A DNA stretch of 64,000 nt, from positions 35,895 through 99,894 of IMG/VR virus record IMGVR_UViG_3300031521_000016; one strand, written 5' to 3'. The DNA is from a virus. Its lineage: Duplodnaviria > Heunggongvirae > Uroviricota > Caudoviricetes. Positions 9,355 through 56,964 of this stretch are shown here, one piece after another. A model generated the notes under the pieces. That model saw only the letters and a list, made by a program, of their open reading frames with translations. It did not search any database and was not told the origin of the DNA. Each line of letters begins with the position of its first letter. Position 1 is the first letter of the stretch. Made by a program: the position numbers and the translations under genes.

Positions 9355-10920
9355 TTAATCTTCATCATTGAAGACATTAGGATATGCATCTATAAGATCT
9401 GCTTTACATACATCTACCCAGTGATCGTCTTTTCTTAAAGCTGGGAAGATTCCTTGAATCATATTCATAGCTTTAACTGAGTTAGGAGCATCTTTAGTTT
9501 TCAATAACCATTGAATAAAGTTGTCTTGTTCTTTTTCAGTTAAAGAATCTTTATCTCTCACATAGTAGCAAACTGCTGATATAAGAGCATGAACTTCATC
9601 TTGTTTAAGTTTACTCCAAGAAGGTGCTTTAGCAGGATTTGTCCATACAAATTTAATATCTTCTGGATTAAATTTATCCATAAGCTTCACGAAACCGGCG
9701 TATGCATTAGCAGCTGCTGGTCCTACAGTAGCTCTAAGAATTGTAAGCTGAACTTTATCAGATACTGATCCTTCAGTTTTTGCAATTTGTTTGATTTTCT
9801 TAGAAGCCATTTCCCATGATCTAGGAGAAGGCCAAGGAGATGACCCAACAGAACCTTCGAATTCATCTAAGTCAAGTAAGTGGAAATATTCTTTGTTCCA
9901 TTTCAAGAATGCTACCATTCTAGGATCAATTAATAATTCACCGGCATCATTTTGTGCTGTTTTAGCCCATGTTTCCCATTCTTCAAGAGTAGGAGCAAAA
10001 TTGACTTGAATTACACGGTTTGATAGGGCAGTATCCCAGTGGAATAATTCCTTTTTAGCATCGATAAGGTCACTACGTCTATTAGCTAGAGCTATAATAA
10101 CCCATTTTGAACCCAATTTATAATCACCGATTTTACGTTCTCTCATAAGTTTTAGACAAACGTCTTGAACTCTTTCATCACATCTAGCGATCTCATCGAG
10201 AAGCAAAATACCTCCTTTTTCACCATTTACTGTCTTTTCTAGTTCTGGTTTTGATAGAGGATATACAGGAAGCATACCGTGTGGCAAAGAAATGTATTCA
10301 ATATCTTCTTTACTATTTCCTACTGTAGCAGGTAAACTGAAATCTTCAGGTCCCATGTTCATTAATGGAAAGTCAAGAATTCTTCTTTGTTTTTCTGCAT
10401 CTACTCCATAAAATTCTTGTGCTAAGGCATAGATAAGAGCAGTTTTACCGATACCTGGAGCTCCCCACATTAGAATTGGATCAGCTTCACCACCAGTTCT
10501 AATAGCTGAACGTAATAGGATTCCCAATGTTTCTCCATCAACATTTTCAATTTTGTCTGTTACCGGAAGCTTTAAATCTATCACATTTTTTTCATCTAGA
10601 GCTGTAACACTTTCGTAAAGAAATGCATTTCTTTTTCCGTTACCACCAGAAAATTCTGTTGGTTTAGATGGCATAGGTGGTATAGAAATAGCTAACCCAA
10701 GTGCTTTAGCTTCTTCGATATCAGCTTTTGTAGGATAGATTACTAATCCTTTAGGTTTTTTAGCCGATTTAACGAAATTGAAAAACCAAGAACCCGATCC
10801 TTTGAAAAAATTACCTACTTTTTCAATAGCATTTTTTATTGTGTCCTTAACTCCTTCGTTTGTGAACTGTGACGAGTCGTAATTTTCGTTGACAAAATCG
10901 TCAAACTTTTTAAATCTCAT
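9355..10920 (-). CDS. MoxR-like AAA+ ATPase (CobS-like)
   Basis: Walker A GAPGIGKT and Walker B LLLDEIARCDERVQDVCLKLM, typical of MoxR/CobS. Confidence 0.75.
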   Translation of the reverse strand: MRFKKFDDFVNENYDSSQFTNEGVKDTIKNAIEKVGNFFKGSGSWFFNFVKSAKKPKGLVIYPTKADIEEAKALGLAISIPPMPSKPTEFSGGNGKRNAFLYESVTALDEKNVIDLKLPVTDKIENVDGETLGILLRSAIRTGGEADPILMWGAPGIGKTALIYALAQEFYGVDAEKQRRILDFPLMNMGPEDFSLPATVGNSKEDIEYISLPHGMLPVYPLSKPELEKTVNGEKGGILLLDEIARCDERVQDVCLKLMRERKIGDYKLGSKWVIIALANRRSDLIDAKKELFHWDTALSNRVIQVNFAPTLEEWETWAKTAQNDAGELLIDPRMVAFLKWNKEYFHLLDLDEFEGSVGSSPWPSPRSWEMASKKIKQIAKTEGSVSDKVQLTILRATVGPAAANAYAGFVKLMDKFNPEDIKFVWTNPAKAPSWSKLKQDEVHALISAVCYYVRDKDSLTEKEQDNFIQWLLKTKDAPNSVKAMNMIQGIFPALRKDDHWVDVCKADLIDAYPNVFNDED

Positions 10921-11004: not shown

Positions 11005-11208
11005 TTATTTCTTTTTCTTTTTGTCCTTCACCTTTTCTTTGGGAAGTTCTTCTGTACCACCTATTTCTTCTATAATAGGATTACGTACTTTAGTTTTCCA
11101 TTCCGATTTTGGACAGAAAATCCATCTTGATGTTTCAACTTTAATGTAAGCTTCTGCATCTTTAACTCTCTCAATTCTTTGTGTCGATATCTCCTTTACT
11201 GTTTTCAT
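11005..11208 (-). CDS. hypothetical small basic protein
   Basis: Track ORF followed by a strong hairpin terminator. Confidence 0.4.
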   Translation of the reverse strand: MKTVKEISTQRIERVKDAEAYIKVETSRWIFCPKSEWKTKVRNPIIEEIGGTEELPKEKVKDKKKKK

Positions 11209-11827
11209 CTGGTACTATTGTTTTTCGTTTACGTTTTTTAGCTTTCTTTAAATTCTCTGGTGATAGAAGAGGGGCTCCAATGACTTCATCAATAATATTG
11301 AACTCAGCAGCTGTCACAGGATCCATGTACCAATCAGACTTTGTCCTTTTGTATACTTCCAAATCTTTTTTCGTTAATTTTGTACGTGAAAAGAGTATGT
11401 TTTCACATACTTTAGTCAATCTTTCTCCTTCTTCTATGGATAGTTTTAATCCTTCTAATGAATCCTGCACTCCCATTGCTATTTCATGATACATGATAGT
11501 AGATAAATGGTGAGCTCGTCTCATATGTCCTGATGCTAGGATAAATAGCCCCATGCTCATAGCAGAGCCTAGACATGTTACACATACCGGTGTAGCAGAT
11601 AGTTCTATGGCGCCAATTAAAGCTAGTCCGTCATATACACTTCCACCATACGTATTTAAAAGTATGTGGATAGATGGCCGCTGATATCCATTATAGCTCA
11701 TCTCTTTTTCTTCATCATCTAAGTTAATCTCATAGATTGCCTTTATAATGTCTTCTACTGATAAAGATGTAATAGTTTTACCGAGTATAAAGATTCTTTC
11801 TTTTGGTTTAAAGTCTAGTGTGGCCAA
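11171..11827 (-). CDS. ClpP-family serine protease
   Basis: INTYGGSVYDGLALIGAIE...CLGSAMSMG matches the ClpP GxSxG serine motif, and a His lies downstream. Confidence 0.7.
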   Translation of the reverse strand: MATLDFKPKERIFILGKTITSLSVEDIIKAIYEINLDDEEKEMSYNGYQRPSIHILLNTYGGSVYDGLALIGAIELSATPVCVTCLGSAMSMGLFILASGHMRRAHHLSTIMYHEIAMGVQDSLEGLKLSIEEGERLTKVCENILFSRTKLTKKDLEVYKRTKSDWYMDPVTAAEFNIIDEVIGAPLLSPENLKKAKKRKRKTIVPDENSKGDIDTKN

Positions 11828-12903: not shown

Positions 12904-13401
12904 TTATTTTTCTAATTGTTCTTCGATATAATTTGCAATTATGATAACATCTTCATCTCGCAGCGGCCAAAATTCTTTACCATTTACTTCTACTGCAAAG
13001 TCACCATCTGTTGGATCGATATGAACATTTGTTAATGTATTTACAGGATTATGTTTTGATGCAGAATAATCATCGATGCTTTTCAATAATCGACTATATG
13101 ACGAATCATCACTTTCTCTTGTAGACGGTTCATGCTTGAAGAATGAAATGACATCTTCATTCGTGTCGACCAAATCAATAGAAAGATCACTCCAGTCAGT
13201 TACTTTTTCCCAGTTTTCTACGATGAATATTTTGGCACATATTGCTATGAACTCCATATGTGCAAGATGATCATTGTATGATTCTAAAAAGTTAAAATCT
13301 ACATGTGAATGTGAAGCTTTAATGTGCTTAGACATATCTTCTAATGAAGAAAAACACGGTCTTACTATATGGCCATGTATTAACAATCCATTTCTGTTCA
13401 T
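12904..13401 (-). CDS. hypothetical protein
   Basis: Track ORF. Confidence 0.5.
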   Translation of the reverse strand: MNRNGLLIHGHIVRPCFSSLEDMSKHIKASHSHVDFNFLESYNDHLAHMEFIAICAKIFIVENWEKVTDWSDLSIDLVDTNEDVISFFKHEPSTRESDDSSYSRLLKSIDDYSASKHNPVNTLTNVHIDPTDGDFAVEVNGKEFWPLRDEDVIIIANYIEEQLEK

Positions 13402-14084
13402 TTGTACTTAGTTAGTTTTTCGTCCAGAATTTTTACACCTTCTGTTGCAGTTTGTTGAATAAAGATTCTGTTTCTTTCTCTTACAGGTTCATTGTTCGGA
13501 TCAATAATATAGATTGGAATATCGTCGTATACCAAATCCACTAATCCAGCTGCTGGATATACTTGTAATGATGTTCCAATGACTACTACGATATCTGCTC
13601 GTTCGATAAGTTCGGCTGCTTCGTCCATATTCGGTACACTTTCACCGAACCAAACAATATGTGGTCTTAATGCTGATCCATCGGCTGCTATAGAGCTAGT
13701 TTCGATTTTGAAATCGGCTGGCCAATCTACTATCTTTTTATCACCACATGATTTCATTTTAGTTAACTCACCATGTAAATGTAATACTTTCGTAGAACCG
13801 GCTCTTTCATGTAAATCGTCCACATTTTGTGTTATGATTTGTACATCAAATTCTTTTTCAAGATCTGCCAGATATTTATGGGCAGCATTAGGTTCGACAG
13901 TAGATAATTGTGCTCTTCGTTTATTATAGAATTCTAACATTTGAGCTCGATTCTTTTGCCAGCCAGTTACAGTAGCAACATCTGAAATGTTATATTCTTC
14001 CCATAGACCGTCAGAATCTCGAAAAGTTTTTATTCCACTTTCGGCGCTTATACCAGCACCAGTAAATACGATAAGTTTTTTCAT
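13398..14084 (-). CDS. Sir2-family NAD-dependent deacylase (sirtuin)
   Basis: GAGISAESGIKTFRD, QNVDDLHERAG and HGEL match the sirtuin Rossmann/NAD-binding motifs. Confidence 0.8.
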   Translation of the reverse strand: MKKLIVFTGAGISAESGIKTFRDSDGLWEEYNISDVATVTGWQKNRAQMLEFYNKRRAQLSTVEPNAAHKYLADLEKEFDVQIITQNVDDLHERAGSTKVLHLHGELTKMKSCGDKKIVDWPADFKIETSSIAADGSALRPHIVWFGESVPNMDEAAELIERADIVVVIGTSLQVYPAAGLVDLVYDDIPIYIIDPNNEPVRERNRIFIQQTATEGVKILDEKLTKYK

Positions 14085-14886: not shown

Positions 14887-15266
14887 AAAAATATTGTTGT
14901 TTGTATTAATTCATTTAAGTCATGTTTATCTTCTATGACATCTACTTTTTTAGTTTGCTCAAGAACATCGACAACTTCTTGTTCACTGATTACTTCATGA
15001 TACTCACCACTAAACGGTATAGATTCATCTAAAACATATTCATATTCATTTTTTAGATGTTTGAATAATGGTACTCTTTTATGTGTAGTTTCACAGTATG
15101 GACATTCATCATCTATTAATGAGATAATGAGAGAGTCTTTTTTGTAGTAAATCTTCATTTGAACATTACGAATATCGGCTAATAATTCCTTTTCGTGTAA
15201 TTCAAATCCTATACATGTCAATAATAAGCTAGTAACTTTATCGTCAAGATTAAGATTCAGGATCAT
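14883..15266 (-). CDS. hypothetical protein
   Basis: Track ORF. Confidence 0.45.
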   Translation of the reverse strand: MILNLNLDDKVTSLLLTCIGFELHEKELLADIRNVQMKIYYKKDSLIISLIDDECPYCETTHKRVPLFKHLKNEYEYVLDESIPFSGEYHEVISEQEVVDVLEQTKKVDVIEDKHDLNELIQTTIFL

Positions 15267-15795
15267 ATTCGATAAAGGGCTCTGAGTTTGTTATTATCTG
15301 TTTGTATCTATTAAATTCGCACATGGTCAAGTGTATGTTTTCACCACCTCCATAGTTCATACTGTGAACATAGTGTGCTGGAATATCGAGATCATGTTTT
15401 ACACAAAAATCTCTTAACCATTCTGCACATGCTTTACCAGTCTTTTCGACAAATTCTCCATCTGGATCTGCTCCATAATGTTCAAAACTTAAATCGTGGT
15501 CAAAAGAAATCAGCCAAAGAAACTTTTTCTGTTCGAAGAGTTCTGTTATCTTTTGTACAAATTCTGTATACGATCTTACTATTACCCAGTCTGTTTCAGA
15601 ATAGATAACTTTATTCATCGGCATATGCGGCATGTGATAATACATACACTCTCTAGGATGCCGCATATCGTCCAGAAACAATTTATATACTAAGATATCT
15701 CTTTCCATAATAGTTGTAAAGTTTCTTTTTCTGATTCCCAAACTTCTCGAGGTAATCCTGCTCTTGTTCCCTTTTCGAATATTACGCCTGGACAT
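15250..15795 (-). CDS. hypothetical protein
   Basis: Track ORF. Confidence 0.45.
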   Translation of the reverse strand: MSRRNIRKGNKSRITSRSLGIRKRNFTTIMERDILVYKLFLDDMRHPRECMYYHMPHMPMNKVIYSETDWVIVRSYTEFVQKITELFEQKKFLWLISFDHDLSFEHYGADPDGEFVEKTGKACAEWLRDFCVKHDLDIPAHYVHSMNYGGGENIHLTMCEFNRYKQIITNSEPFIEYDPES

Positions 15796-20103: not shown

Positions 20104-20940
20104 TTATTGCAAGTATACTGTCAATATATCGTCGAAGAACTCTTTGTTCTGTGTAAAGATCGGCGTTTCAACAGCTTCCCATTTATTTCGTCTTGCTCCA
20201 TTCTTTAGATACTCAACCTTTTTAATGATTGCTCCTCGCTTCCTGCGGTAATCATACTCATTCCAATTGATACCTTTTTCAAAGATCATATCTTGCATTA
20301 CATCTGTTTTCTTACCGTGTAGTTCTTTTGGGCTGTATAAGCTTTGAGCTACAGAAGAAATAGAATTGCGAGTGGCATCTTGCTGTCTCCAAATGAAATA
20401 ATTTATAACTTCCTGTCTAGCTGGAATAGTGAATACTCTAGCATCAAATTCAGCTAATTTTTTGAAGCATCCCATGATGTCATCATGTGTCTGAAAAACA
20501 AGATTTTCAAATTTTGACAGAGCACGTTTGATTCGCAATTCATTAAACTTATTAGTTGCCATAGAAGCTGATACACTTACAATCTTTTGGATATTATTAT
20601 CGTACCATGCATCGGTTGTTACATCATCGAAATCAGTAATTAATACTGAGATTTCATCAGATTGGACGTAAGCACATTTAGCACCTTGGATATTTTTACA
20701 CAGATATGCTGCAGTAAGATTCATATCTTCAATTAATCCATCATCAAATGGACGTTGCAACCCTTTCGTGTAAGTATGAAATGCTTTTCCATCGATTCTG
20801 ATTACTGCATATGTACGTCTGGGTAGATACATTCGAGTTCTGTTCTCGTAGAACTCTTTCATCCTGTTCCCTAAATCATCTTTTTTATTTTCCACGGTCG
20901 GTGTAATATTTAATGTATAATGCTTGTTGTCTGATGCCAA
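20104..20940 (-). CDS. Thg1-like tRNA 5'-guanylyltransferase (TLP)
   Basis: FYENRTRMYLPRRTYAVIRIDGKAFHTY...RPFDDGLIEDMN...CAYVQSDEISVLITDF matches the Thg1 catalytic core (RxDG, PFD, SDEIS). The start may be the internal M27. Confidence 0.75.
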   Translation of the reverse strand: MASDNKHYTLNITPTVENKKDDLGNRMKEFYENRTRMYLPRRTYAVIRIDGKAFHTYTKGLQRPFDDGLIEDMNLTAAYLCKNIQGAKCAYVQSDEISVLITDFDDVTTDAWYDNNIQKIVSVSASMATNKFNELRIKRALSKFENLVFQTHDDIMGCFKKLAEFDARVFTIPARQEVINYFIWRQQDATRNSISSVAQSLYSPKELHGKKTDVMQDMIFEKGINWNEYDYRRKRGAIIKKVEYLKNGARRNKWEAVETPIFTQNKEFFDDILTVYLQ

Positions 20941-22006: not shown

Positions 22007-23263
22007 TTAGTTGCTAATTTCTATAATATAGCGGATAGTAGCTTGCGATATATCGTAAATGATGTATTCATTGTTTCGTAAGTCTGCTCCACCCTCAGCG
22101 AATACAGAATCGAAACCATCAGCTGCAAGATTCTTTTTATTTAGCCCGTAATTAGAACGTGTTACATGTTTCTGATTTCCTACGTGAAAGTCAAATAATG
22201 CCAAGAAAGCAGTAGCAGCAGAACCTCTCGCCCAGTATGAACCGGATAATGATGTATAGCCGATAGACTTTTGTGCTTTATCAGCTCCATAGATACCGTC
22301 TCCGAACATAGAACCAGAATATACTGCTCCAGATGGTCTAATCAAAAGCCCTGTCTGTAAAATGTTAAGCCAGTTTTCATTTCTAGAACCATGCCAGAAT
22401 GTTTGTATCTTTTTATTTTTAGCTGAATCTACTTGTTTAATGAAGCGTTCTTCTGTTTGTATATTTTTTACACCGAATGCTCTAACGAATTGTTTAGCAT
22501 TTGGCCCCATAAGCGATTTGATTTTTTGAACTTCTGCATCTGTAATTTCTACCATTTCAAGACCAAGCATCTTTAATGTATCAACTTTTTCATCTGCATC
22601 ATCTTCTTCTCCACCATTTTCTGCAAGTTTTTGTTTCTTCAACATTTCAACTTGTCCTGCCATAGTATCTAAAAGTTTTTGTTCTTTGTCCATCATGTCG
22701 AACAGAGTTTTGTTTTTTGTATCTTTTAGATCGAAGTCTTTGGGTAAAAGATGATAACTTACATGCTTCATCTTTCTAGGTATAATCGAATACAGCTCTA
22801 AGAATAAGTTGTTGATATCATTAACCGTAAGAGTGGATAATCCGGCAGATATCGTATTAATGATGCCTTGTGCTGCATCAACTTGTTGTTGTGTAACGTC
22901 AGATTGAGAAATCGTGTAGTTTTCTTCTACCGTCTTTTTAGCAAAAGCTTGTAGTCTGTCGAAGAATAACTTAATCTTAGCATTAGCAATCTGAGTAATC
23001 GTTTTCTTCTTGCCGGTTTTAACATCAGTAGCAGTGGCTCCAATAGATTCGATGAATAGTGTGGTTACATCTTTATAACCTTTTTTCGTTTTCGCTCGAT
23101 ATGTCTTTTCCCATTCTCTAATCGGATAAGTTTTTTCAGCTGGTTTACCTCCTTGTACTCTACCATATACGACTGTGAATGTTCCATTTTCATTATCAGT
23201 CATATGATAAAATTTGTTGTTATTTTCACTGGTCACCATGACCAATTTTACTACTTTCCCCAT
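22007..23263 (-). CDS. PARP-like ADP-ribosyltransferase with N-terminal WGR domain
   Basis: WGR-like N-terminus (NNKFYHM...VVYGRVQGG...KGYKDV). Catalytic domain FWHGSRNENWLNILQTGL...GDGIYGADKAQKSIGY...NNEYIIYDISQATIRYIIE aligns with the PARP1 H-G-S / Y-Y / E triad. Confidence 0.8.
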   Translation of the reverse strand: MGKVVKLVMVTSENNNKFYHMTDNENGTFTVVYGRVQGGKPAEKTYPIREWEKTYRAKTKKGYKDVTTLFIESIGATATDVKTGKKKTITQIANAKIKLFFDRLQAFAKKTVEENYTISQSDVTQQQVDAAQGIINTISAGLSTLTVNDINNLFLELYSIIPRKMKHVSYHLLPKDFDLKDTKNKTLFDMMDKEQKLLDTMAGQVEMLKKQKLAENGGEEDDADEKVDTLKMLGLEMVEITDAEVQKIKSLMGPNAKQFVRAFGVKNIQTEERFIKQVDSAKNKKIQTFWHGSRNENWLNILQTGLLIRPSGAVYSGSMFGDGIYGADKAQKSIGYTSLSGSYWARGSAATAFLALFDFHVGNQKHVTRSNYGLNKKNLAADGFDSVFAEGGADLRNNEYIIYDISQATIRYIIEISN

Positions 23264-35031: not shown

Positions 35032-35917
35032 TGTATATCATTTCTGCATTACTATATGCTGCGGTAATATCAGCTTTCATTTCAGAAATAATAGATTCTA
35101 CTTTATATACATGAATATCATCTTCTAAATCAAGTGACATAGCAAGAATAAATTTGTTATTGCCATTGTATTCAGATCGCATGTTATTTATATGCTTAAC
35201 ATCTGGATACGATTTAATGATCTGTTTTATATGCATTCTCATTTCCCTTGATATGCTTTCACCAATCATTAATTTTCTAAATTCGTTACTCAAAAAATAT
35301 GAGGATGATAATAAAAGTAATCCAACAGTGATCGATCCAATTGCATCAAATACGGGAGATATGCATATAGCTAATGTAGTAGAAAGTAGTACAATAACTA
35401 ATCCTGTAAGGGCAGCAAAATCTTCAATTATGATAACGAATATATTAGCATCAGTTGAATTTTTAAGATGATTTAGCCAACTAACTTTTCTATGCTTATC
35501 CATTTTGAATCGTTTGAATGCAACATAGAATGAATTTGCCTCAATGATGATCGATATAATTAGAACGATAAAAATCCACATCATATTTGAAAGGCCCTCT
35601 GGTTCTATTATCTTATGAATGCCTTCATATACTGAATATAAACCACCAACAAAGAATAGTAAAACTCCTACTAACAGTCCATAAAAATATTCCTCTTTGC
35701 CATAACCAAATGCATGTTGTTCATCAGGTTCTTTTTTAGAACGTTTAGAGCCCACGATTAAAAGAATTTGGTTTGCAGTGTCAGCAAAAGAGTGAATAGA
35801 TTCAGCGAACATTCCAGCACTTCCAGTAATGAATGATACTATCAACTTAATTGCACTTATTATGAGATTTCCTACTCCTGCTACAATTACTGCCTTTAAA
35901 CTTCCTTCTGTACTCAT
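35009..35917 (-). CDS. cation diffusion facilitator (CDF) family metal efflux transporter
   Basis: Six predicted TM helices, the CDF signature SIHSFADTANQ in TM2, and a C-terminal cytoplasmic domain. Confidence 0.75.
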   Translation of the reverse strand: MSTEGSLKAVIVAGVGNLIISAIKLIVSFITGSAGMFAESIHSFADTANQILLIVGSKRSKKEPDEQHAFGYGKEEYFYGLLVGVLLFFVGGLYSVYEGIHKIIEPEGLSNMMWIFIVLIISIIIEANSFYVAFKRFKMDKHRKVSWLNHLKNSTDANIFVIIIEDFAALTGLVIVLLSTTLAICISPVFDAIGSITVGLLLLSSSYFLSNEFRKLMIGESISREMRMHIKQIIKSYPDVKHINNMRSEYNGNNKFILAMSLDLEDDIHVYKVESIISEMKADITAAYSNAEMIYIETSHSH

Positions 35918-36420
35918 TCAGCCTCCATTATTCGTTCAAGATATTCCCATGCTTTTAATACGTCGATCGGATGTTCTGTGCATTGAATAGCATTTCTGAA
36001 TTCTGCATATTCATTTTTGTACATTAAGAACTTATCTTTGTTGTATTCTTTACTTTGAATAGTATTTGCAATTCTATCACATATTTTGACAGCTGTTGCT
36101 TTCCAGTTTCCACGAATTTTAGGATAAGTCTTGGCATGTTTTTCTGTCCGGTTTCTTCCTAATTCATCAGTTACACAGAATACTATTTCTGCGATATTTT
36201 TACCGAATGCTTTCTTAATATCATTGAACGATAAATGAGTATCTTCCAATACATCATGTAAAATACATCCAATAACAATTTCTTCATCAAATCCCAAAAT
36301 CTCAGCGATTTCAGCTACACGCTTTACATGATATGCATATGGGTAGATATCGTAAGTCTGGCCTTTATGAACCAACTCAGCTACCATCAAAGCTCTATCC
36401 TTTTTTGTTATCGTTATCAT
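35914..36420 (-). CDS. HD-domain small alarmone hydrolase (SpoT/Mesh1-like (p)ppGpp hydrolase)
   Basis: H...HDVLEDT...FG..IAEIVFCVTDE matches the RelA/SpoT HD hydrolase motifs; 168 aa, single domain. Confidence 0.7.
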   Translation of the reverse strand: MITITKKDRALMVAELVHKGQTYDIYPYAYHVKRVAEIAEILGFDEEIVIGCILHDVLEDTHLSFNDIKKAFGKNIAEIVFCVTDELGRNRTEKHAKTYPKIRGNWKATAVKICDRIANTIQSKEYNKDKFLMYKNEYAEFRNAIQCTEHPIDVLKAWEYLERIMEAE

Positions 36421-37130: not shown

Positions 37131-37895
37131 TTATTTTTTATTTGTTGGTTCTAACCAAGTTCCATCTCTAAATATTAGATCAAGAAAGCCCGGAATATAT
37201 GTTGATTCTACTAAATTCAACAGTTTTAAAGTTTTGACTGTATCATGTTTCATCATCTTCTTAACTTCTTCTCTTATACGTTCATTACTCACAGTCTTTC
37301 CAAGTTTTTCGAGGATAGCAGGTTGCTTCATAGCTTCCCAAATATCTACGTGGATATCGAAGTTTTTTGTGATAGAAAAACGCATAGCTCGCAAGATACG
37401 TAATGGATCGTCCATCATAGTAATCTTTGGATCGATAGGGGTAATCAAAATACGATTACTTAATGCAAGCTTGCCATTGAATAAGTCGATAATTTTGCCC
37501 TCTTCATCTTCTGCCATTGCATTGACAGTAAAATCTCTTCGTTCTAAGTCATCAGCTAAAGTACCCAGTGCTAAGATAGGAGTTCTTGTATCGGGTATGT
37601 AACCGAGCTCTTTTCGTGCTAATACAAAATCAGCAACTAATCCGTCATAAATATGACCATGTGGAAATTTAGCGCGAATAGTAAACATTTCTGGAGTAGA
37701 AAGAAAGATACTATATTTGCGTTCTTTCATCCATTCATACATGACGTTGAAACCTTCAGTGACAGTTAATTCACTGCATAAGCCAGGAACTATACGTTCT
37801 TGTTCATTTAGTACAAAAGTGAAATCGACATCTTTGTTTTCGATACCTAATAGAGCATCTCTTACTACTCCTCCTACTTTATAAATTTTTGGCAT
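37131..37895 (-). CDS. class-II tRNA nucleotidyltransferase head/neck domain (minimal CCA- or A-adding enzyme / poly(A) polymerase family)
   Basis: GGVVRDALLG...DVDF, ERRDFTVNAMA and DDPLRILRAMRF are the canonical PolyA_pol head-domain motifs; only 254 aa. Confidence 0.8.
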   Translation of the reverse strand: MPKIYKVGGVVRDALLGIENKDVDFTFVLNEQERIVPGLCSELTVTEGFNVMYEWMKERKYSIFLSTPEMFTIRAKFPHGHIYDGLVADFVLARKELGYIPDTRTPILALGTLADDLERRDFTVNAMAEDEEGKIIDLFNGKLALSNRILITPIDPKITMMDDPLRILRAMRFSITKNFDIHVDIWEAMKQPAILEKLGKTVSNERIREEVKKMMKHDTVKTLKLLNLVESTYIPGFLDLIFRDGTWLEPTNKK

Positions 37896-38543: not shown

Positions 38544-38578
38544 ATAAAAAAATGCCTGAATTAAAAAATTCAGGCATT
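38544..38578 (-). terminator. rho-independent terminator (stem AATGCCTGAATT/AATTCAGGCATT plus T7)
   Basis: 12-bp stem followed on the minus strand by TTTTTTT. Confidence 0.65.
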
Positions 38579-38602
38579 TTACATTTTCTTGGCAATATAT
38601 TT

Positions 38603-39546: not shown

Positions 39547-39987
39547 TTACGCTTTGATAATTTTGTGTTTTTCTAGGTCAATTTGGCCTATCTTCGTAAC
39601 ATCTTGAATGTACCAGTTTAGAATTCTATGACTGTTAGTAGCTTCTTCACAGTCATTCTCATCTATGAAAATTTCATATACTGTATCATGAACAAGAATA
39701 TATTGAGAATAAGAATCGAGGTTATCCCATGAGTCAAACTCGAACATATCTCTTATGTAATCTTCAAGAAATGCCGTCAATGAATGTTCTATAGTCTCAC
39801 CGGACACTTCTTCAAATTCGTCCATGAATGTATCAGAATAGTCGAATACTTTTATCTTCCTAGCTTTCTTAGGTGCAGATTTAAGGATTGCCATGAAATC
39901 GATAACGGCTTTGTCTGTAGATTTCCCTTCAGGTAAAGTTCTACCATATTCAATAGCATCGAATATGATTTGATTTGTTAGTGTCAT
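39547..39987 (-). CDS. hypothetical protein
   Basis: Track ORF. Confidence 0.5.
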   Translation of the reverse strand: MTLTNQIIFDAIEYGRTLPEGKSTDKAVIDFMAILKSAPKKARKIKVFDYSDTFMDEFEEVSGETIEHSLTAFLEDYIRDMFEFDSWDNLDSYSQYILVHDTVYEIFIDENDCEEATNSHRILNWYIQDVTKIGQIDLEKHKIIKA

Positions 39988-40487
39988 AAAATTATATCGT
40001 AATCAAATTGTGAATACTTATCTAAAATATCTATATTAGTGTTAACAGGAACTGGAGCAGTTAAGCCCGTGTTTTCTTTTTCTACAAATGACGCAAAATT
40101 CATACTATTTACGATAAGTCGTTTATCTGGCATCATGTATTTGCAATACTCAGTTTGCCAATTCTTACGGACAACTTGTCCCAAAGTCGATGTATCTAAT
40201 ACTAGATGATCTGGTGTAGAATCTGCTATGAACCAAACATTTTTCTTTCCATTTTTCTTACGCCAATAATTGATAGTATCATACTGTCCCTTACCGGTAT
40301 AGAAATCACGTCCTTCTATTTTTGGAGGCAATACAAATAACATGTCGCATTCATACATCGGTTCAGGAGAATATTCTCCACCTACATACTCTACTAATTC
40401 ACATCCAAACTTATTCTTTATGATGGATCTAGTACGTAGCAACTGATCATAATCACAGTTATTGCTTTTAGATAAATAAATTTTCAT
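39984..40487 (-). CDS. hypothetical protein
   Basis: Track ORF. An MKIYL start loosely recalls nucleoside 2-deoxyribosyltransferase-like folds, but this is unsupported. Confidence 0.45.
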   Translation of the reverse strand: MKIYLSKSNNCDYDQLLRTRSIIKNKFGCELVEYVGGEYSPEPMYECDMLFVLPPKIEGRDFYTGKGQYDTINYWRKKNGKKNVWFIADSTPDHLVLDTSTLGQVVRKNWQTEYCKYMMPDKRLIVNSMNFASFVEKENTGLTAPVPVNTNIDILDKYSQFDYDIIL

Positions 40488-40489
40488 TT

Positions 40490-40927
40490 TTACACTAATT
40501 TTGAAAAATCTTTTAGCTCATTTCTAACTTTCATCAGGATTTTACCAAGCATATTTTTACCTACACCTTCGCATACTCCCCAATATTTATCTCCCCACCA
40601 ATTACCTTCAATAAGCATTGCATCACCGGTAGCAATTAATTTCTTTGTAAGTTCGGCACTTTGTGAAAATTTAGCCATTACGACTTCTTCCATAATGCTA
40701 TCTTTAACTAAATCCCAATCGGAACGTAGATTTACAGATCTGCCAAGTTTTTTACTCTCGCTTGGATTAAGCGATACGAATGATTCTCTAGCAACTGAAT
40801 CATTCGTTTTCATAGAATGAAATGCGCCTTCTGAGTTGGCATACGTTCTTCCGTCATAAGTAACTGGTGATTCCCAGAAGTTACTGAGGAATGCGTATTC
40901 CCCTTTGAAAAAGTCAATAGTTTTCAT
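40490..40927 (-). CDS. NADAR (YbiA-like) ADP-ribosyl hydrolase domain protein
   Basis: FLSNFW, E at SEGAFHSMK, MEEVVMAKFSQ...LTKKLIATGDAMLIEGNWWGDKYWG and NMLGKILMKVR match the NADAR signature. Confidence 0.75.
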   Translation of the reverse strand: MKTIDFFKGEYAFLSNFWESPVTYDGRTYANSEGAFHSMKTNDSVARESFVSLNPSESKKLGRSVNLRSDWDLVKDSIMEEVVMAKFSQSAELTKKLIATGDAMLIEGNWWGDKYWGVCEGVGKNMLGKILMKVRNELKDFSKLV

Positions 40928-41606
40928 CGTTTGTATATTTTGAACATTTTTTAGTTTCTTTTGTTATAAGCTGAATATTTGTCGTTATTCCGCTAGGCTT
41001 TGTAAATGGTCTTGATCGTAAATCTACCCATCCTTCTGCTATTTCATACGCAGATTCTACAATTTCATGTGAACAGTCATACTTAACGTATGAACAGCAA
41101 CCTACATAGCCATTATTTTGTAAAGCTATCGACCATGTTTTACGTGAATTTTTACATGTGTAACAGATGCTAGGATATTTAGCTGATACAGTTTCCTCAT
41201 CTAATTCAGGATCGTTTTCGCTAGCTTGTGCCAACTCTTTATCGTCTACTTTGTCTTCATCTTCTGTAACATCACAGTTTTTATTGTCAATGCATGATTC
41301 TTCCTCGTAATTTTCCAATTCTAAATCATGCATGAGAATTTTATCGACATAATCTTCATACAAGAGCATGTTGCATTTTAAATATTGCGCTGCTACAGCC
41401 GAATTATGTTTTTTCAGTTCATCAAATGATAGTCCTAATGTATTTTTGCTACAATCTGTATCAATTGAATATTCTAATCCTTTTGACCAGTTTACTAAAA
41501 AATATACATTATTGTTCTCGCCGAATTTATCAGCCTGCATAGCTATAAATGCATCAGTTACACTTTTTATGTAACTTTCATATTTTAATCTGGTATCCGT
41601 GTTCAT
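40914..41606 (-). CDS. hypothetical acidic protein with Cys-rich C-terminus
   Basis: Track ORF. Confidence 0.45.
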   Translation of the reverse strand: MNTDTRLKYESYIKSVTDAFIAMQADKFGENNNVYFLVNWSKGLEYSIDTDCSKNTLGLSFDELKKHNSAVAAQYLKCNMLLYEDYVDKILMHDLELENYEEESCIDNKNCDVTEDEDKVDDKELAQASENDPELDEETVSAKYPSICYTCKNSRKTWSIALQNNGYVGCCSYVKYDCSHEIVESAYEIAEGWVDLRSRPFTKPSGITTNIQLITKETKKCSKYTNDENY

Positions 41607-41926: not shown

Positions 41927-42385
41927 CTATTTACAGATCTTGTCTGCACAATATGTAGCAGCAAAACCGTCAGGTTTAAAACGAGGTTTATATCCCATTG
42001 ATTCAATATATCCTAAAGATGCACGTAATACTGCATTGGATTTATATTTCGGATCAGGATTAAAGTCAATATCGATAAACTCAGGTTTTTGAATTCCAGA
42101 ATTTCTCAAGTACTCAGAAATTTCAATTGAGATTTCTACTTCTTTCCACAATCTTGAAAATGAATCATATACACGTTTTGTCAATTCCTTTGAATAAAGA
42201 ACGTGAGCACCGTGATTTCCGTAATGTAGAACAATTACTACTGCATATAATGTAGAAGCTCCTCTGCTCTGCGAATCTGTACCTACGTAGATTTTTATAT
42301 CTTCGTGGTCAATAAATTGCTGTTGCAAGTATGGTATTAAGTCGACTTCTTTTTTTGTAGTCAAACTTTTAAATTTTCTTTCCAT
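41927..42385 (-). CDS. hypothetical protein
   Basis: Track ORF adjacent to the nucleotidyltransferase gene. Confidence 0.45.
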   Translation of the reverse strand: MERKFKSLTTKKEVDLIPYLQQQFIDHEDIKIYVGTDSQSRGASTLYAVVIVLHYGNHGAHVLYSKELTKRVYDSFSRLWKEVEISIEISEYLRNSGIQKPEFIDIDFNPDPKYKSNAVLRASLGYIESMGYKPRFKPDGFAATYCADKICK

Positions 42386-42394
42386 AATGAATTA

Positions 42395-43588
42395 TTATCT
42401 TGATGCACTAGGCCTGGGAATCCTTCCCTTTTCTACTTCAGGTCTATTACTTATTCTACTTTTTTTGACATGCCTAATTTGATCATTACAATTTTTCCAT
42501 CTCATGGATATGAGTAAATTGTTGATATAGTCACGATCTGGAGATTCTTGCATGTCGGATTTGTCAAATGCTTCATTTACTTGTTTCATCAAGTCTTCAG
42601 CTTCATTAACTAAATCTTCATATTCATATTCTCCTTTTCTGATAGCTAACAATTTATCTCTATTTGTGCGTCTTACATTTATTCCTTTGCCTTGCGCAAT
42701 CTCTAATGACATTTCAAGCAAACGTAAAGTATGTGCTAAATTTTTACCGTCATATCCTTTTCCGTGCAACATGTTATCATTGAAACGGTGAACATTCCTT
42801 TTGGCAACCCATTCCCAGTATTCTTTATATTCTTTGCAGTATACAGAATAACCTTCCATGTTAAATTGCATTAAGAAATCTGGTTTTATACCACTTGGAA
42901 TATTACTAAGACTTACATCCATCGCAGTTTCTTCGTCTGAAACAATACCTCTATAGTAATCAGATATGAGAATGCCTTGTTCTCTAGCAAGAAATTGATT
43001 ACGATTATAGTATACACCGTATGTGTTTTTCATATGAGGTAGTGCAACTAATCCACAACAATCTTGTACCATGTCGTTCATTCGTAAGTACTCTTTAACG
43101 TTAATAGAGCCTTGCTTCCATTGAACGAAACAGAATTCTAAAATGCTTTTGCGTTTTTCATCGAACTGTTTAACAATCTTTTTGTTCAATCCTCTAGCTT
43201 TCTTTATTTGTTGAGTAGCATACCCACCAAATGAATTTTTACAGAGCTTAGAGATAAATTTATCTCTATTTTCGAGGATCATATCGAATATTGGTGCTTT
43301 ATAAATTACACAATCTTCAGGTGTATTCAAAAGCTCTATGATATTAGGATTGTTAGTGTATATTAATTCCAAAAATTTTCCTAATTCGTAGAATGTGATA
43401 TCGTTCATTTCATCAGATACTTGATCGTCATATTCTAATCCAAGAATTTTATCGATAGGTTGCATGAATACACCACGTATGTCTGTATCAGAAGTTTCTG
43501 TTGCAGTACCATATGCGTGTGAACCAGCGATAACTTCATAAATTATCAGTCCATTATCTCGTAAATCTTGTAAAGTTAATTTCTTCAT
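42395..43588 (-). CDS. Pol-beta-superfamily nucleotidyltransferase (RlaP/PF10127-like; CD-NTase/OAS-like not excluded)
   Basis: GSHAYGTATETSDTDIRGV is the G[S]-x9-DxD nucleotidyltransferase motif followed by RGV, as in RNA-repair-associated predicted nucleotidyltransferases; 397 aa. Confidence 0.6.
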   Translation of the reverse strand: MKKLTLQDLRDNGLIIYEVIAGSHAYGTATETSDTDIRGVFMQPIDKILGLEYDDQVSDEMNDITFYELGKFLELIYTNNPNIIELLNTPEDCVIYKAPIFDMILENRDKFISKLCKNSFGGYATQQIKKARGLNKKIVKQFDEKRKSILEFCFVQWKQGSINVKEYLRMNDMVQDCCGLVALPHMKNTYGVYYNRNQFLAREQGILISDYYRGIVSDEETAMDVSLSNIPSGIKPDFLMQFNMEGYSVYCKEYKEYWEWVAKRNVHRFNDNMLHGKGYDGKNLAHTLRLLEMSLEIAQGKGINVRRTNRDKLLAIRKGEYEYEDLVNEAEDLMKQVNEAFDKSDMQESPDRDYINNLLISMRWKNCNDQIRHVKKSRISNRPEVEKGRIPRPSASR

Positions 43589-53495: not shown

Positions 53496-53984
53496 TCATT
53501 TGACATGTTTCAATACAGCGAATAATGTAGAGTATGTACCAATTTTATCGTCATATCCACCCTTAAATAAGCTATAATTTCTTATCTTTACACCATTTTT
53601 ACTTATGCCGATTCTGTACAAATATTTGTCGCGATTCTTATGTTCATCATACCACAAATTATCTTCTTCGTCGTACCTAAATCCATTATCGTATAGTGAT
53701 TGAACGATATCGATAACCGGCACGTAACCAGTGTAACGCTTAATAGTTTTATAGTCAAATCTTAGACCTCCAAAATACATTGTATAGTATCTATCATGAT
53801 CACCGTTGGATGTTAAAAGATCGAATATTACTTCACCAATATGTGATATTGCAGCTAATTCTTTTTCTACTTCTAAGATATAGTCAGAAATAGTAAAATA
53901 ATCTAACGCATACACCATATACGGGTATGTACTATTTATTGTAACTTCTATTTTATATAAGAGTCTGGTCGGAATTGATTCCAT
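53496..53984 (-). CDS. hypothetical protein
   Basis: Track ORF. Confidence 0.5.
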   Translation of the reverse strand: MESIPTRLLYKIEVTINSTYPYMVYALDYFTISDYILEVEKELAAISHIGEVIFDLLTSNGDHDRYYTMYFGGLRFDYKTIKRYTGYVPVIDIVQSLYDNGFRYDEEDNLWYDEHKNRDKYLYRIGISKNGVKIRNYSLFKGGYDDKIGTYSTLFAVLKHVK

Positions 53985-54928: not shown

Positions 54929-55246
54929 TTATGTTATTTTAATCCAGCCTTCTCCGCCTGGACCACATTCATTTTCTATAGTTATCTTTATCAGTTTTTG
55001 ATTCTCATAACCTCCAGCTCTTATAGCTATTGGCATAAATTCTTTTTCTAACATCTCTTCATCGAAGGGATGACTATCTCCTAAGCATACAAATACATGA
55101 TTCTCTTTCTCGTTAAGATATACATCACCGTATTCACCATTGCAAAGAATTGCAATGGCATACGCATAATGTTGAAGTTTAGCAAAATCGATAGGTCCCG
55201 GATATTTAACGTCTTCGTTAAATTCTTTGTATTTCTTTATTCTCAT
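54929..55246 (-). CDS. hypothetical protein
   Basis: Track ORF. Confidence 0.45.
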   Translation of the reverse strand: MRIKKYKEFNEDVKYPGPIDFAKLQHYAYAIAILCNGEYGDVYLNEKENHVFVCLGDSHPFDEEMLEKEFMPIAIRAGGYENQKLIKITIENECGPGGEGWIKIT

Positions 55247-56964
55247 TAGATTGCAGGTTTTGTTTCTTCAGCAGCAGGTTCAGGAGTACTTTCTGGTTCA
55301 GGAGTAGTTGCTGGTTCAGGAGTAGATGATGATCCAGAACCTGAGCTATCACTAGATGGTTCAGATGATGATGAACTTCCTCCAGCTGGAGCTGATGGAG
55401 CAGTATAACTTAGTCCTCCTGCGGACGCAGTATTTTCACCACCATTTTCTTCTTCATCTTCTTTAATCATACGTTCATTCATAGCTAATACGTCCTTATC
55501 CATGTGTAAATATTGTTGAACTAAGAATCTCATAGAGAAGAATGGTTTGCCTTCTGCCTTTTGAAGCTGTGACATAGAACCGATAAATTCTAGACGCTTA
55601 GTCATAATCTCTTGTTCTCTGATTTCTTCGAACATGTTATCTTTAACGAAACGCAATCCTAATGATGACTTAAACAGCTCATCATCTTCAAGATGATTAT
55701 ATTTAAGACACATTTGAATCCAGAGTGGTTTCAACAATATTTCTTGGAATGCTGAACGAATTCTGCTTACAAATTTACCGAAACGTACTTCTTCACGGTC
55801 TACACCAGTAGCAGCCGAACCAGACATTTGTCCACCAGAATTGGCTTTATCGAAACGAGCAAAAGGAATTTTTGAATCTTCTTTAAGCTTATTCATCCAA
55901 TACATCAATAGTGTACTATTTTGTAAGTCTGGACCATCACCACCCATAGTGGATATATCTATTTGTTCACCGTTCTTAGAAGGGAATAAGTAATTCTTGT
56001 AGAATTGACCTACAGAAGGTGATCCGTTGATTCTTAATTGGCCATCGTTAGAATCCAAGATTATGTCTTCTTTATAGATCGCCATTAATTCAGCTAAGGT
56101 TTCTTTTGCTTTCTGAGGAGATTTCGATCCAATTGGAACAATCATTTTTACTCTCCAAGTAGCATTCATCATAGTCCACATAACCATTGCATTCTCGATC
56201 ATTCTTAGAAGATTGAAAGAACGTACCAGATTTTCAACGTATGATATTCTTGAAGGTAAATTGCCTTTAGCATAAGAGATGTATACAACTTGTGTATCAT
56301 ATAGCATTCTTGTCATAGCAGGTCTATCAGGGTAAAGGTACCATACCTTTTTCATTATTCCGTTTTCCTGTAAGACATCAGGCTTCAGAAATGCGGCATC
56401 TAATTCTTTAAACCCTAGTACATTTTCACCTTTTGCATCAAATACAATTTCAAATGCTAGTACTCCATCTACTAAAAATTGACGGAAATATTGCCAACCT
56501 GTGATATCAGCTCCAAATCCATGTCTATTATAGATTCGTTTATATTCATCACTTATGGCATCTCTTATTTCCTCACTTATATCTAAGTTTGCCACAGAAG
56601 GATAAGCAAAATAGTTAGTTTCATCATATACAATACCTTCATCAGCAAGTGTGGTCATCATGAAATCGATTTCACCATTTAAAGCAAATTTTCTCAGATA
56701 ATCTCTTCGTGATGGGTAATCTTTATCGAAAATAGCTGTGTACTTTTTCTGTGAAACATCAGCTAATGCAAATGCATAAGCTAAATCTTTTGGAGCATAT
56801 TCTCCCAGTGTAGCTTCAGTAGGTCCGATAGCTCTTGAATTTCGTATGACTAGATCATCATACTTCATCCCTAAACTAGATATCTTTCGGATACCATCAC
56901 CTACACTGACAAGTGATTTAACTCCAAAACGATCAAAAAATCCGCTTTCAAATAATTTAGACAT
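55246..56964 (-). CDS. portal protein (T4 gp20-like)
   Basis: FGKFVSRIRSAFQEILLKPLWIQMCLK, ENAMVMWTMMNATWRVKMIVPIG and the following helical segment align with T4 gp20 ([50 protein letters not shown]). C-terminal S/P/E-rich tail. Confidence 0.65.
   Translation of the reverse strand: MSKLFESGFFDRFGVKSLVSVGDGIRKISSLGMKYDDLVIRNSRAIGPTEATLGEYAPKDLAYAFALADVSQKKYTAIFDKDYPSRRDYLRKFALNGEIDFMMTTLADEGIVYDETNYFAYPSVANLDISEEIRDAISDEYKRIYNRHGFGADITGWQYFRQFLVDGVLAFEIVFDAKGENVLGFKELDAAFLKPDVLQENGIMKKVWYLYPDRPAMTRMLYDTQVVYISYAKGNLPSRISYVENLVRSFNLLRMIENAMVMWTMMNATWRVKMIVPIGSKSPQKAKETLAELMAIYKEDIILDSNDGQLRINGSPSVGQFYKNYLFPSKNGEQIDISTMGGDGPDLQNSTLLMYWMNKLKEDSKIPFARFDKANSGGQMSGSAATGVDREEVRFGKFVSRIRSAFQEILLKPLWIQMCLKYNHLEDDELFKSSLGLRFVKDNMFEEIREQEIMTKRLEFIGSMSQLQKAEGKPFFSMRFLVQQYLHMDKDVLAMNERMIKEDEEENGGENTASAGGLSYTAPSAPAGGSSSSSEPSSDSSGSGSSSTPEPATTPEPESTPEPAAEETKPAI

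Follow-up and report, generated by a model that had tools for sequence, protein, structure and literature searches.

NADAR proteins reverse the guanine ADP-ribosylation made by DarT, a claim of the preliminary description of this locus that the literature bears out, strictly for DarT1 and not for DarT2 (PMC11543638). T4 gp30.3, also called AdfN (Pfam PF08010, Phage_30_3), is an orphan phage NADAR that strips ADP-ribose from phage DNA and defeats DarTG1, and this function is lost in its E36A and K43A mutants (Johannesman, Carlson and LeRoux 2024, PMC11257639). Two unrelated phage NADARs, one from the T5-like Bas32/Bas33 and one from Bas60, neutralise DarT1 and rescue DarTG1-sensitive phages; with the Bas32/Bas33 protein, phages regain several logs of growth on hosts that carry DarTG1 (PMC11257639).

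The chemistry of the family is broader than this single conflict. All NADAR types of Escherichia coli, including YbiA, together with T4 gp30.3, hydrolyse guanine-ADP-ribose on DNA in vitro (Cihlova et al. 2024, PMC11125620). In one study YbiA and gp30.3 gave cells no protection from DarT1 (PMC11125620), and in vitro chemistry is therefore no guarantee of antitoxin function. NADARs also reverse guanosine ADP-ribosylation of RNA, being the sole hydrolase family found to do so, and are inactive on phosphate-linked ADP-ribose (PMC11833690), while cytidine-ADP-ribose is hydrolysed by YbiA-type enzymes (PMC12945103). Phage NADAR genes often lie beside genes of NAD+ salvage, or in early regions together with genes for host manipulation and RNA repair (Iyer et al. 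2022, PMC9503650).

Residues that define the active site are known from the Phytophthora nicotianae enzyme (PnNADAR), in which E43, K50, K75, R79, W89, R93, E125, D130, and W133 contact ADP-ribose or are needed for guanine-ADP-ribose hydrolysis (Schuller 2023, PMC11543638). The subfamilies can be told apart at the position of E125, which is occupied by Glu in the YbiA subfamily, by Asp in the BC4488 subfamily linked to DarT1, and by His in the T4-type NADARs of phages (PMC11543638).

Here, we characterize a NADAR gene found in a 64-kb stretch of phage DNA (the whole stretch analysed is referred to below as the window) and compare it with these systems. We weigh an antitoxin-like role in counter-defence against roles in NAD+/ADP-ribose metabolism, RNA repair, and riboflavin damage control, and against a partnership with a PARP encoded by the same phage.

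Results

A single-domain NADAR gene in a large phage

The window has a G+C content of 33% and carries 104 of its 110 ORFs on the minus strand. Megablast of the 38-44 kb region against GenBank phages gave no match, and there is accordingly no annotated close relative. For the T4-like portal protein (55246..56964), the nearest relatives belong to uncultured huge phages (LR756500, 43.5%), followed by those of the Prevotella Lak megaphages (~36%) and then of Tenacibaculum phages, and the cultured relatives of a PARP encoded in the window are Cellulophaga phages. Taken together with the low G+C content, these relationships suggest a large, Bacteroidota-infecting phage. No tRNA genes were found in the 64-kb window, and a sigma-70 promoter scan, based on a model unsuited to Bacteroidota, returned fewer matches than in shuffled sequence.

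The NADAR coding sequence runs from ATG to stop at 40490..40927 on the minus strand, exactly where the preliminary description, silent on the strand, had placed it, and encodes 145 aa. It shares its first 14 nt with the end of the upstream ORF (40914..41606), and only 2 nt separate it from the next ORF (39984..40487), so that the gene sits in a tightly packed, co-oriented array. The product matches the Pfam NADAR family PF08719 with an E-value of 1e-27 and 97.8 bits, against a gathering cutoff of 35.1. Since this match spans profile positions 9-163 of 163 and covers residues 10-139 of 145, the protein is single-domain and stand-alone. It further matches PHROG phrog_1017 at 2.8e-47, and a sequence search of the PDB retrieved E. 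coli YbiA (2b3w, 1.7e-20) and PnNADAR (8bau, 7e-9).

An AlphaFold2 model with 41 homologs as input (mean pLDDT 94.3, pTM 0.88) predicts helices and two beta-hairpins. Foldseek aligned this model to YbiA 2b3w with a TM of 0.87 and to 8bau (PnNADAR-ADP-ribose) with a TM of 0.79, and found no match besides these two in the PDB at E <= 0.001; the predicted structure has the YbiA-like alpha+beta fold, a helical core with two small flanking beta-sheets. Comparison with a 74%-identical relative (locus L009) gave a pN of 0.18 and a pS of 0.86 with synonymous sites saturated, which indicates that the gene is under purifying selection; these values come from L009 only, as a one-residue offset in L013 breaks the ungapped codon alignment. 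The NADAR signal in this ORF is far beyond chance, and the earlier recognition of a stand-alone NADAR protein is upheld by the ORF, the PF08719 match, the fold, and the selection on the gene.

Relatives of the protein are numerous. Homologs were detected by tblastn in 767 of 50,697 GenBank phage records, the best being those of SPbeta-like and AR9/PBS1 Bacillus phages (53-55%) and of T5-like phages (48.6-49.7%), one of the latter already annotated as an 'antitoxin-like enzyme'. In IMG/VR, two short patterns picked out at least 563 relatives, most of them on contigs 70-500 kb long. Cellular genomes and MAGs contributed another 265, distributed across Clostridia, Bacteroidales, methanogens, Planctomycetes, Pseudomonadales, and Asgard/DPANN archaea. 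This scatter over phyla is the pattern of a promiscuously transferred gene, and because relatives are spread over so many bacterial and archaeal phyla, a scan of bacterial genomes yielded no host signal. Identical copies of the protein are found on 18 contigs in the public protein collection, the longest of 140 kb, and the retrieved contigs keep the gene order. Phages very commonly carry a NADAR of this type, and the gene is neither rare nor conceptually new.

The active site is of the Glu type

A full NADAR/YbiA signature including SEGAFH had been read in the protein beforehand; we find it as NSEGAFHSMK at residues 31-40 (40808..40837, minus strand), where alignment identifies a predicted catalytic Glu, E33 (codon at nt 40829-40831), and a predicted phosphate-binding Lys, K40 (codon at nt 40808-40810). 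A second motif, LIEGNWWGDKYWG, at residues 105-117 (40577..40615, minus strand), was likewise located by alignment and contains E107, D113, and W116. Across an alignment of 41-42 homologs, 47-75% identical, E33, K40, K59, W71, E107, D113, and W116 are invariant, and R63 and K75 nearly so.

Residues were mapped through a HMMER alignment to 8bau, whose chain numbering equals the numbering of the paper plus 2. E33 and K40 align to E43 and K50 of PnNADAR, and also to E88/K95 of the E. coli C7 NADAR and E36/K43 of AdfN. K59 and W71 correspond to PnNADAR K75 and W89, R63 and K75 to R79 and R93, and E107, D113, and W116 to E125, D130, and W133. The window protein thus carries Glu at the E125 position (E107, within LIEGNWWGD), as do members of the YbiA subfamily. 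A profile built from its clade detected YbiA (2.2e-34) and PnNADAR (2.3e-19) in the PDB, and no DarT1-linked NADAR. By its sequence, the protein is a minimal (core-fold only), Glu-type NADAR of the YbiA subfamily.

Comparison with characterized NADARs

The Bas33 NADAR gene was located by local tblastn as bas33_0070 (MZ501074, 62806..63255, QXV80081.1); another candidate, bas33_0052 (429 bp), was rejected as unrelated by BLASTP. The Bas32/Bas33 NADAR, from Markadamsvirinae, aligns to residues 7-145 of the window protein with 48.6% identity. Both are stand-alone proteins of ~145 aa without an N-terminal extension and without an adjacent toxin gene, and both have the Glu-type motifs SE..F....K and LIEGN(T/W)WGD.YWG. 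They differ in their surroundings, as one belongs to T5-like coliphages and the other to a large, probably Bacteroidota-infecting phage with another gene neighbourhood. Homology to a validated member, combined with the lack of a cognate toxin gene, would place the window protein in the class of orphan anti-DarTG1 NADARs.

YbiA (2b3w) is the best match of the window protein in both structure and sequence, with 38-39% identity and a Glu-type active site in both. In contrast to the phage protein, however, it is chromosomal, belongs to a LexA-controlled operon, and acts as a riboflavin-intermediate N-glycosidase; its lack of rescue from DarT1 was noted above. AdfN is more distant. It shares with the window protein the Glu/Lys pair at the same 7-residue spacing, but T4 gp30.3 is only 22% identical to it and has His (LKHS) in place of E107 (LIEGN), and the window protein scores 19.7 bits against PF08010, below the cutoff of 36 bits. 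Furthermore, the function of AdfN is limited to a T-even phage context.

The DarT1-linked DarG1 proteins (BC4488 subfamily; E. coli C7, Geobacter lovleyi) appear from sequence to have the superfamily, the guanine-N2 de-ADP-ribosylation chemistry, and the Glu/Lys pair in common with the window protein, and their K115, which is needed for antitoxin function, corresponds to the invariant K59. Unlike the window protein, they are ~230 aa long with a basic beta1-beta2-alpha1 extension, proposed to bind DNA, and have a catalytic Asp (D171 in C7) where the window protein has Glu; the NADAR domain of the latter starts at about residue 4 of 145, leaving no such extension. No darT1 neighbour accompanies the gene, since its flanking ORFs match nothing in Pfam, PHROG, PADLOC, or NCBIfam, and no member of the DarT family was found among the ORFs of the 64-kb window at E <= 1e-4. 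The Glu at position 107, the clade profile that fits YbiA best, the low identity to gp30.3, the sub-threshold PF08010 score, and the missing N-terminal extension together indicate that the protein is an orthologue of neither DarG1 nor AdfN.

Gene neighbourhood of NADAR in the window and in related loci

Two co-oriented genes with Pfam matches are located upstream of NADAR on the minus strand: an RNaseH_like gene (PF04308, 41927..42385) and a RlaP-family nucleotidyltransferase gene (42395..43588). The order RlaP - RNaseH_like - NADAR is kept in loci L001-L004 and in the 74%-identical relative. The immediate neighbours offer no partner. The downstream ORF of 167 aa (39984..40487) has no match in Pfam, PHROG, PADLOC, or NCBIfam, and its homologs are confined to this phage; a SLOG or deoxyribosyltransferase-like assignment was rejected for want of a domain match and because the ORF is absent from the L009 locus. 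The upstream ORF of 230 aa, considered as a conserved partner, is absent from that locus as well and was rejected.

In more distant relatives, NADAR is flanked by Pyr_excise and UvdE genes (L013), lies near UDG and GIY-YIG genes (L005), or lies near a dCMP deaminase gene (L011). Of 80 viral loci, 11 have a Thg1-like gene no more than 8 kb from NADAR, and these 11 are drawn from 4-5 independent NADAR groups; such a gene adjoins NADAR in L053 and is ~1 kb away in L045 and L088. RlaP is near NADAR in 6 of the 80 loci, and loci anchored on RlaP contained NADAR in none of 10 cases. Among the protein types encoded by the window itself, only those of tRNA repair recur near NADAR elsewhere in viral contigs.

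When all ORFs within 3 kb on either side of NADAR were clustered for 164 loci without prior assumptions, and the top neighbours were verified with Pfam, the verified neighbours included NadV/NAMPT (31 loci), NadE (28, immediately downstream of NADAR), PRPP-synthetase-like proteins (18), nicotinamidase (17), and the NAD-dependent DNA ligase LigA (14, immediately upstream). The association with NAD+ salvage is contributed by few NADAR sequence groups (4-10 of 76-106), and no such salvage gene was found in the 64-kb window. The largest neighbour cluster (32 loci, 164 aa), Macro-like by eye, had no Pfam match at 1e-3. Overall, gene context supports a general tie of the NADAR family to NAD+ and ADP-ribose without identifying a dedicated partner here, and it lends moderate support to roles at the level of RNA or of metabolites.

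Other ADP-ribose, RNA-repair, and antitoxin-like genes of the window

At some distance from NADAR, and separate from it as a feature, the window encodes a PARP1-like ADP-ribosyltransferase of 418 aa (22007..23263, minus strand; Pfam PF00644, 75 bits). Its residues 82-416 align to the helical-plus-ART fragment of PARP1, and its H-Y-E motifs are intact (WHGSR, GDGIYGAD, and NNEYIIYD). A search with concatenated PARP and NADAR queries found PARP in only 15-16 GenBank phage records, and a search of IMG/VR for PARP relatives returned one locus only, too few for context statistics.

With Sir2, this PARP makes up the NAD+ consumers of the window, which also encodes a Nudix protein. Genes of RNA-repair type are represented by Thg1, ~1 kb from the PARP gene, and by a CCA-adding-type NTase, cREC_REC, and HD_4. 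In addition, the window carries orphan antitoxin-like genes, one with an Xre/MbcA/ParS_C domain and one with an RnlB-like domain.

Discussion

Judging from its conserved active site, its homology to characterized enzymes, and the activity of all NADARs assayed to date, the window protein very probably functions as a NADAR N-glycohydrolase. We consider it most plausible, with a probability of roughly 55%, that it is an orphan of antitoxin-like function, erasing base-linked ADP-ribose from phage nucleic acid to counter a DarT1-like host defence. That the protein could be an anti-DarTG factor had been put forward in the preliminary description; the proposal stands as the best-supported function in view of the 48.6% identity to the validated Bas32/Bas33 NADAR, but its novelty does not, since the idea had already been published (Johannesman et al. 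2024, PMC11257639).

In such a mechanism, the ADP-ribose moiety would be bound through K40, K59, R63, W71, D113, and W116, and E33 and E107 would cleave the N-glycosidic bond between ADP-ribose and the exocyclic amino group of the nucleobase. The target base is predicted to be guanine, at N2, or possibly cytosine, in single-stranded DNA or RNA, and the products would be free ADP-ribose and the restored base. Expression during infection would then allow the marks of a DarT1-like toxin, which we infer to be part of the host's defences, to be erased from replicating phage DNA, so that phage replication could continue. Dispensability of the catalytic Glu is an imperfect test against this function, because in the C7 NADAR the E88A mutant kept most of its in vitro activity, whereas E88Q was inactive and neither mutant rescued cells in vivo (PMC11543638).

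For DNA as the presumed substrate in vivo, we count the placement of NADAR among genes of DNA repair and DNA metabolism in relatives (L013, L005, and the 14 loci with LigA). The orphan antitoxin-like genes elsewhere in the window would fit a counter-defence repertoire. Against the counter-defence role, we count that the commonest neighbours in the clade are genes of NAD+ salvage and not DNA genes, that the protein is without the basic DNA-binding extension and the Asp-type arrangement of DarT1-linked NADARs, and that it scores just over the cutoff of the NCBIfam family named 'riboflavin intermediates N-glycosidase'.

The salvage neighbourhood draws attention away from nucleic acids altogether. 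The substrates may be soluble N-glycosidic ADP-ribose conjugates, signals, or by-products of NAD+-dependent reactions, including signalling molecules from NAD+-consuming host defences, in which case the enzyme would inactivate these signals or feed ADP-ribose back into NAD+ reconstitution. Iyer et al. (2022, PMC9503650) made the same prediction for phage NADARs, and it agrees with the recurrence of NadV/NAMPT, NadE, PRPP-synthetase-like, and nicotinamidase genes and with the presence of PARP, Sir2, and a Nudix protein in the window. Yet we rate such a metabolite role as rather unlikely, given that the salvage association comes from few NADAR groups and is missing from the window, that a soluble ADP-ribose substrate of any NADAR is unreported in the cited NADAR literature, and that DNA de-ADP-ribosylation is the only in vivo function demonstrated for a homolog of this subtype (PMC11257639). 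A place in a tRNA/RNA-repair toolkit, where the enzyme would take ADP-ribose off tRNA or mRNA bases modified by host ART toxins or, in a variant, process ADP-ribose by-products of RNA repair, seems improbable to us. It would account for the RlaP - RNaseH_like - NADAR order shared with the 74%-identical relative, for the Thg1-like and RlaP genes near NADAR in other loci, and for the RNA-repair-type genes of the window, and the ability to reverse guanosine ADP-ribosylation of RNA is particular to NADARs (PMC11833690). The association is, however, loose in both distance and frequency and was not recovered from loci anchored on RlaP, and a defence that ADP-ribosylates guanine or cytosine in RNA is undescribed in the cited NADAR literature. 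A broader form of this idea takes up that gene order together with the adjacency of NADAR and Thg1 elsewhere and the proximity of PARP and Thg1 here: NADAR might not be, or not only be, an anti-DarT1 eraser but part of an RNA-repair/ADP-ribose network that cleans tRNA or mRNA bases of marks left by an as yet undescribed RNA-targeting ART defence of the host or by the phage PARP modifying nucleic acid, which we likewise regard as improbable.

The possibility, also raised in the preliminary description, that NADAR is the eraser for the phage's own PARP1-like writer, reversing or limiting ADP-ribosylation of host or phage targets, has a true premise, as the PARP gene with its H-Y-E triad and helical regulatory region is intact and lies in the same window. 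No Macro, PARG, or ARH domain was found in these 64 kb at E <= 1e-4, which leaves NADAR as the only recognized full-reversal hydrolase there, although a Macro or PARG partner may lie elsewhere in the larger genome; moreover, the two genes co-occur in five jumbo-phage records (LR756500, XacN1, CM1, RAS14, and Xoo-sp13). The pairing itself is poorly supported. A distance of 17 kb separates the two genes, none of 80 IMG/VR NADAR loci had a PARP within 8 kb on either side, no NADAR lies within 10-20 kb of the PARP gene in its two closest relatives, 10 PARP-bearing records of Cellulophaga and Klebsiella phages have no NADAR, and ~765 NADAR-bearing phage records have no PARP. Only genomes of >300 kb carry both, and at that size gene content alone would lead one to expect co-occurrence. 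NADARs are known to act on base N-glycosides, whereas PARP1-type enzymes produce protein- or phosphate-linked ADP-ribose, and no NADAR activity on protein-linked ADP-ribose is reported in the cited NADAR literature; a dedicated writer-eraser pair is thus very unlikely. We attach just as little credence to riboflavin damage control, that is, hydrolysis of reactive ribosylamino-pyrimidine intermediates as performed by E. coli YbiA (COG3236). Behind this assignment are a score of 83.1 bits against NCBIfam TIGR02464 (equivalog_domain, cutoff 73.7), the 39% identity to YbiA, which is the best PDB match, and the Glu-type active site. The TIGR02464 score is nevertheless marginal beside the 169.5 bits of the YbiA control, other phage homologs reach 81-92 bits, and the anti-DarT1 Bas33 NADAR, at 66.8 bits, is only 16 bits below the window protein, so that the cutoff cannot separate the two functions. 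By our own reasoning, the riboflavin-intermediate and ADP-ribose reactions are alike in that each breaks the bond between a ribosyl group and an exocyclic amino group on a pyrimidine or purine ring, which would explain the cross-match. No riboflavin biosynthesis gene is present in the 64-kb window or among the recurrent neighbours of the clade, the single-domain protein is neither fused to nor neighboured by ribA or ribD, and such an activity has no apparent benefit for a lytic phage.

The orphan antitoxin-like eraser remains our preferred reading of the gene. In practical terms, the gene adds one further candidate to anti-DarTG1 panels. A richer story than the NADAR gene itself is offered by the NAD+/ADP-ribose enzymes and orphan antitoxin-like genes of the window: a PARP1-like writer, Sir2, Nudix, NADAR, tRNA-repair enzymes, and several orphan antitoxin-like domains are combined in one window, which makes this phage a good system for studies of NAD+/ADP-ribose conflict. 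If the protein is active as predicted, orphan-antitoxin counter-defence by NADARs would extend from coliphages to huge-phage/Lak-like, probable Bacteroidota phages, and the hosts of this Lak-like lineage would by implication use nucleic-acid ADP-ribosylation as a defence.

Gene neighbourhoods of related NADAR proteins

Among the IMG/VR and genome loci of the same clade (L027-L187; for example L059, L070 and L058), several lineages carry a NADAR gene of this type inside NAD+ salvage cassettes, where NadV/NAMPT is followed, with NADAR in between, by NadE directly after NADAR, together with PRPP-synthetase-like and nicotinamidase genes. In other cases in this set of loci, the gene immediately upstream of NADAR encodes an NAD-dependent DNA ligase. 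A neighbour that recurs often, at 32 loci, is a 164-aa protein that looks Macro-like by eye and for which a Pfam search gave no match.

NAD-related and antitoxin-like genes of the window

The window encodes a 418-aa PARP1-like ADP-ribosyltransferase (22007..23263, minus strand; PF00644, 75 bits). A PARP1 fragment spanning the helical-regulatory and ART regions aligns to residues 82-416 of this protein, the H-Y-E triad is unbroken in this alignment, and visual inspection suggests a WGR-like N-terminus. Such genes are rare among phages (16 of 50,697 GenBank records), being found in Cellulophaga, Klebsiella and Xanthomonas/Stenotrophomonas jumbo phages, and the nearest relative is that of an uncultured huge phage (LR756500, 43.6%). 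A Thg1-like gene (20104..20940) lies ~1 kb downstream. A homolog of the Sir2/CobB-like NAD-dependent deacylases is encoded at 13398..14084 (minus strand; PF02146, 5e-44), its NCBIfam score of 217.8 bits being under the subfamily cutoff of 243 bits; a Sir2-like protein is present in T5-like phage Bas33 as well (bas33_0055).

The sole content of a 66-aa ORF at 3786..3986 (minus strand) is an Xre/MbcA/ParS C-terminal toxin-binding antitoxin domain (PF09722, 3.8e-9), which scores 65 bits on NCBIfam Xre_ParS_antitoxin, under the 90-bit cutoff. Its surroundings showed no toxin of the RES, ParT or MbcT kind, and the product may be an orphan antitoxin against RES-type NAD+-targeting toxins. A 162-aa protein with an RnlB_antitoxin domain in residues 22-85 (53496..53984, minus strand; PF15933, 6e-11) is a possible second orphan antitoxin, one that would work as T4 Dmd does against RNases of the RnlA/LsoA type.

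Phage affinity and other features

The T4-like portal protein (55246..56964, minus strand) has its closest matches in uncultured huge phages (LR756500, 43.5%) and in the Lak megaphages of Prevotella (about 36%). The source is probably a large phage of the huge-phage/Lak clade, with the reservation that genetic code 11 gives a normal reading of the window's ORFs.

Also on the minus strand are two gene pairs. One consists of a MoxR-type AAA ATPase (9355..10920) and a DUF2201 metallopeptidase/VWA protein (7715..9340); the other of a PfkB-family sugar kinase (1819..2649) and a cytidylyltransferase-like protein (2818..3261) that together (1819..3261) resemble a split version of RfaE of ADP-heptose synthesis. 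A ClpP-like protease (11171..11827) is encoded near the first pair, and a cupin at 3983..4357. Downstream of the NADAR-containing gene block, a hairpin with a perfect 14-bp stem and 4-nt loop (38549..38580), flanked by T-runs on both strands, forms a terminator-like, bidirectional element.

Dispersed over the minus strand (15250..15795, 20104..20940, 35914..36420, 37131..37895 and 41927..43588) is a tRNA/RNA-repair-type toolkit comprising cREC_REC (cyclic-phosphate processing), the Thg1-like 3'-5' polymerase, an HD_4 domain, a CCA-adding/PolyA_pol-type NTase, an RlaP NTase and an RNaseH_like protein (PF04308), the presence of which suggests that the phage counteracts anticodon nucleases of its host.
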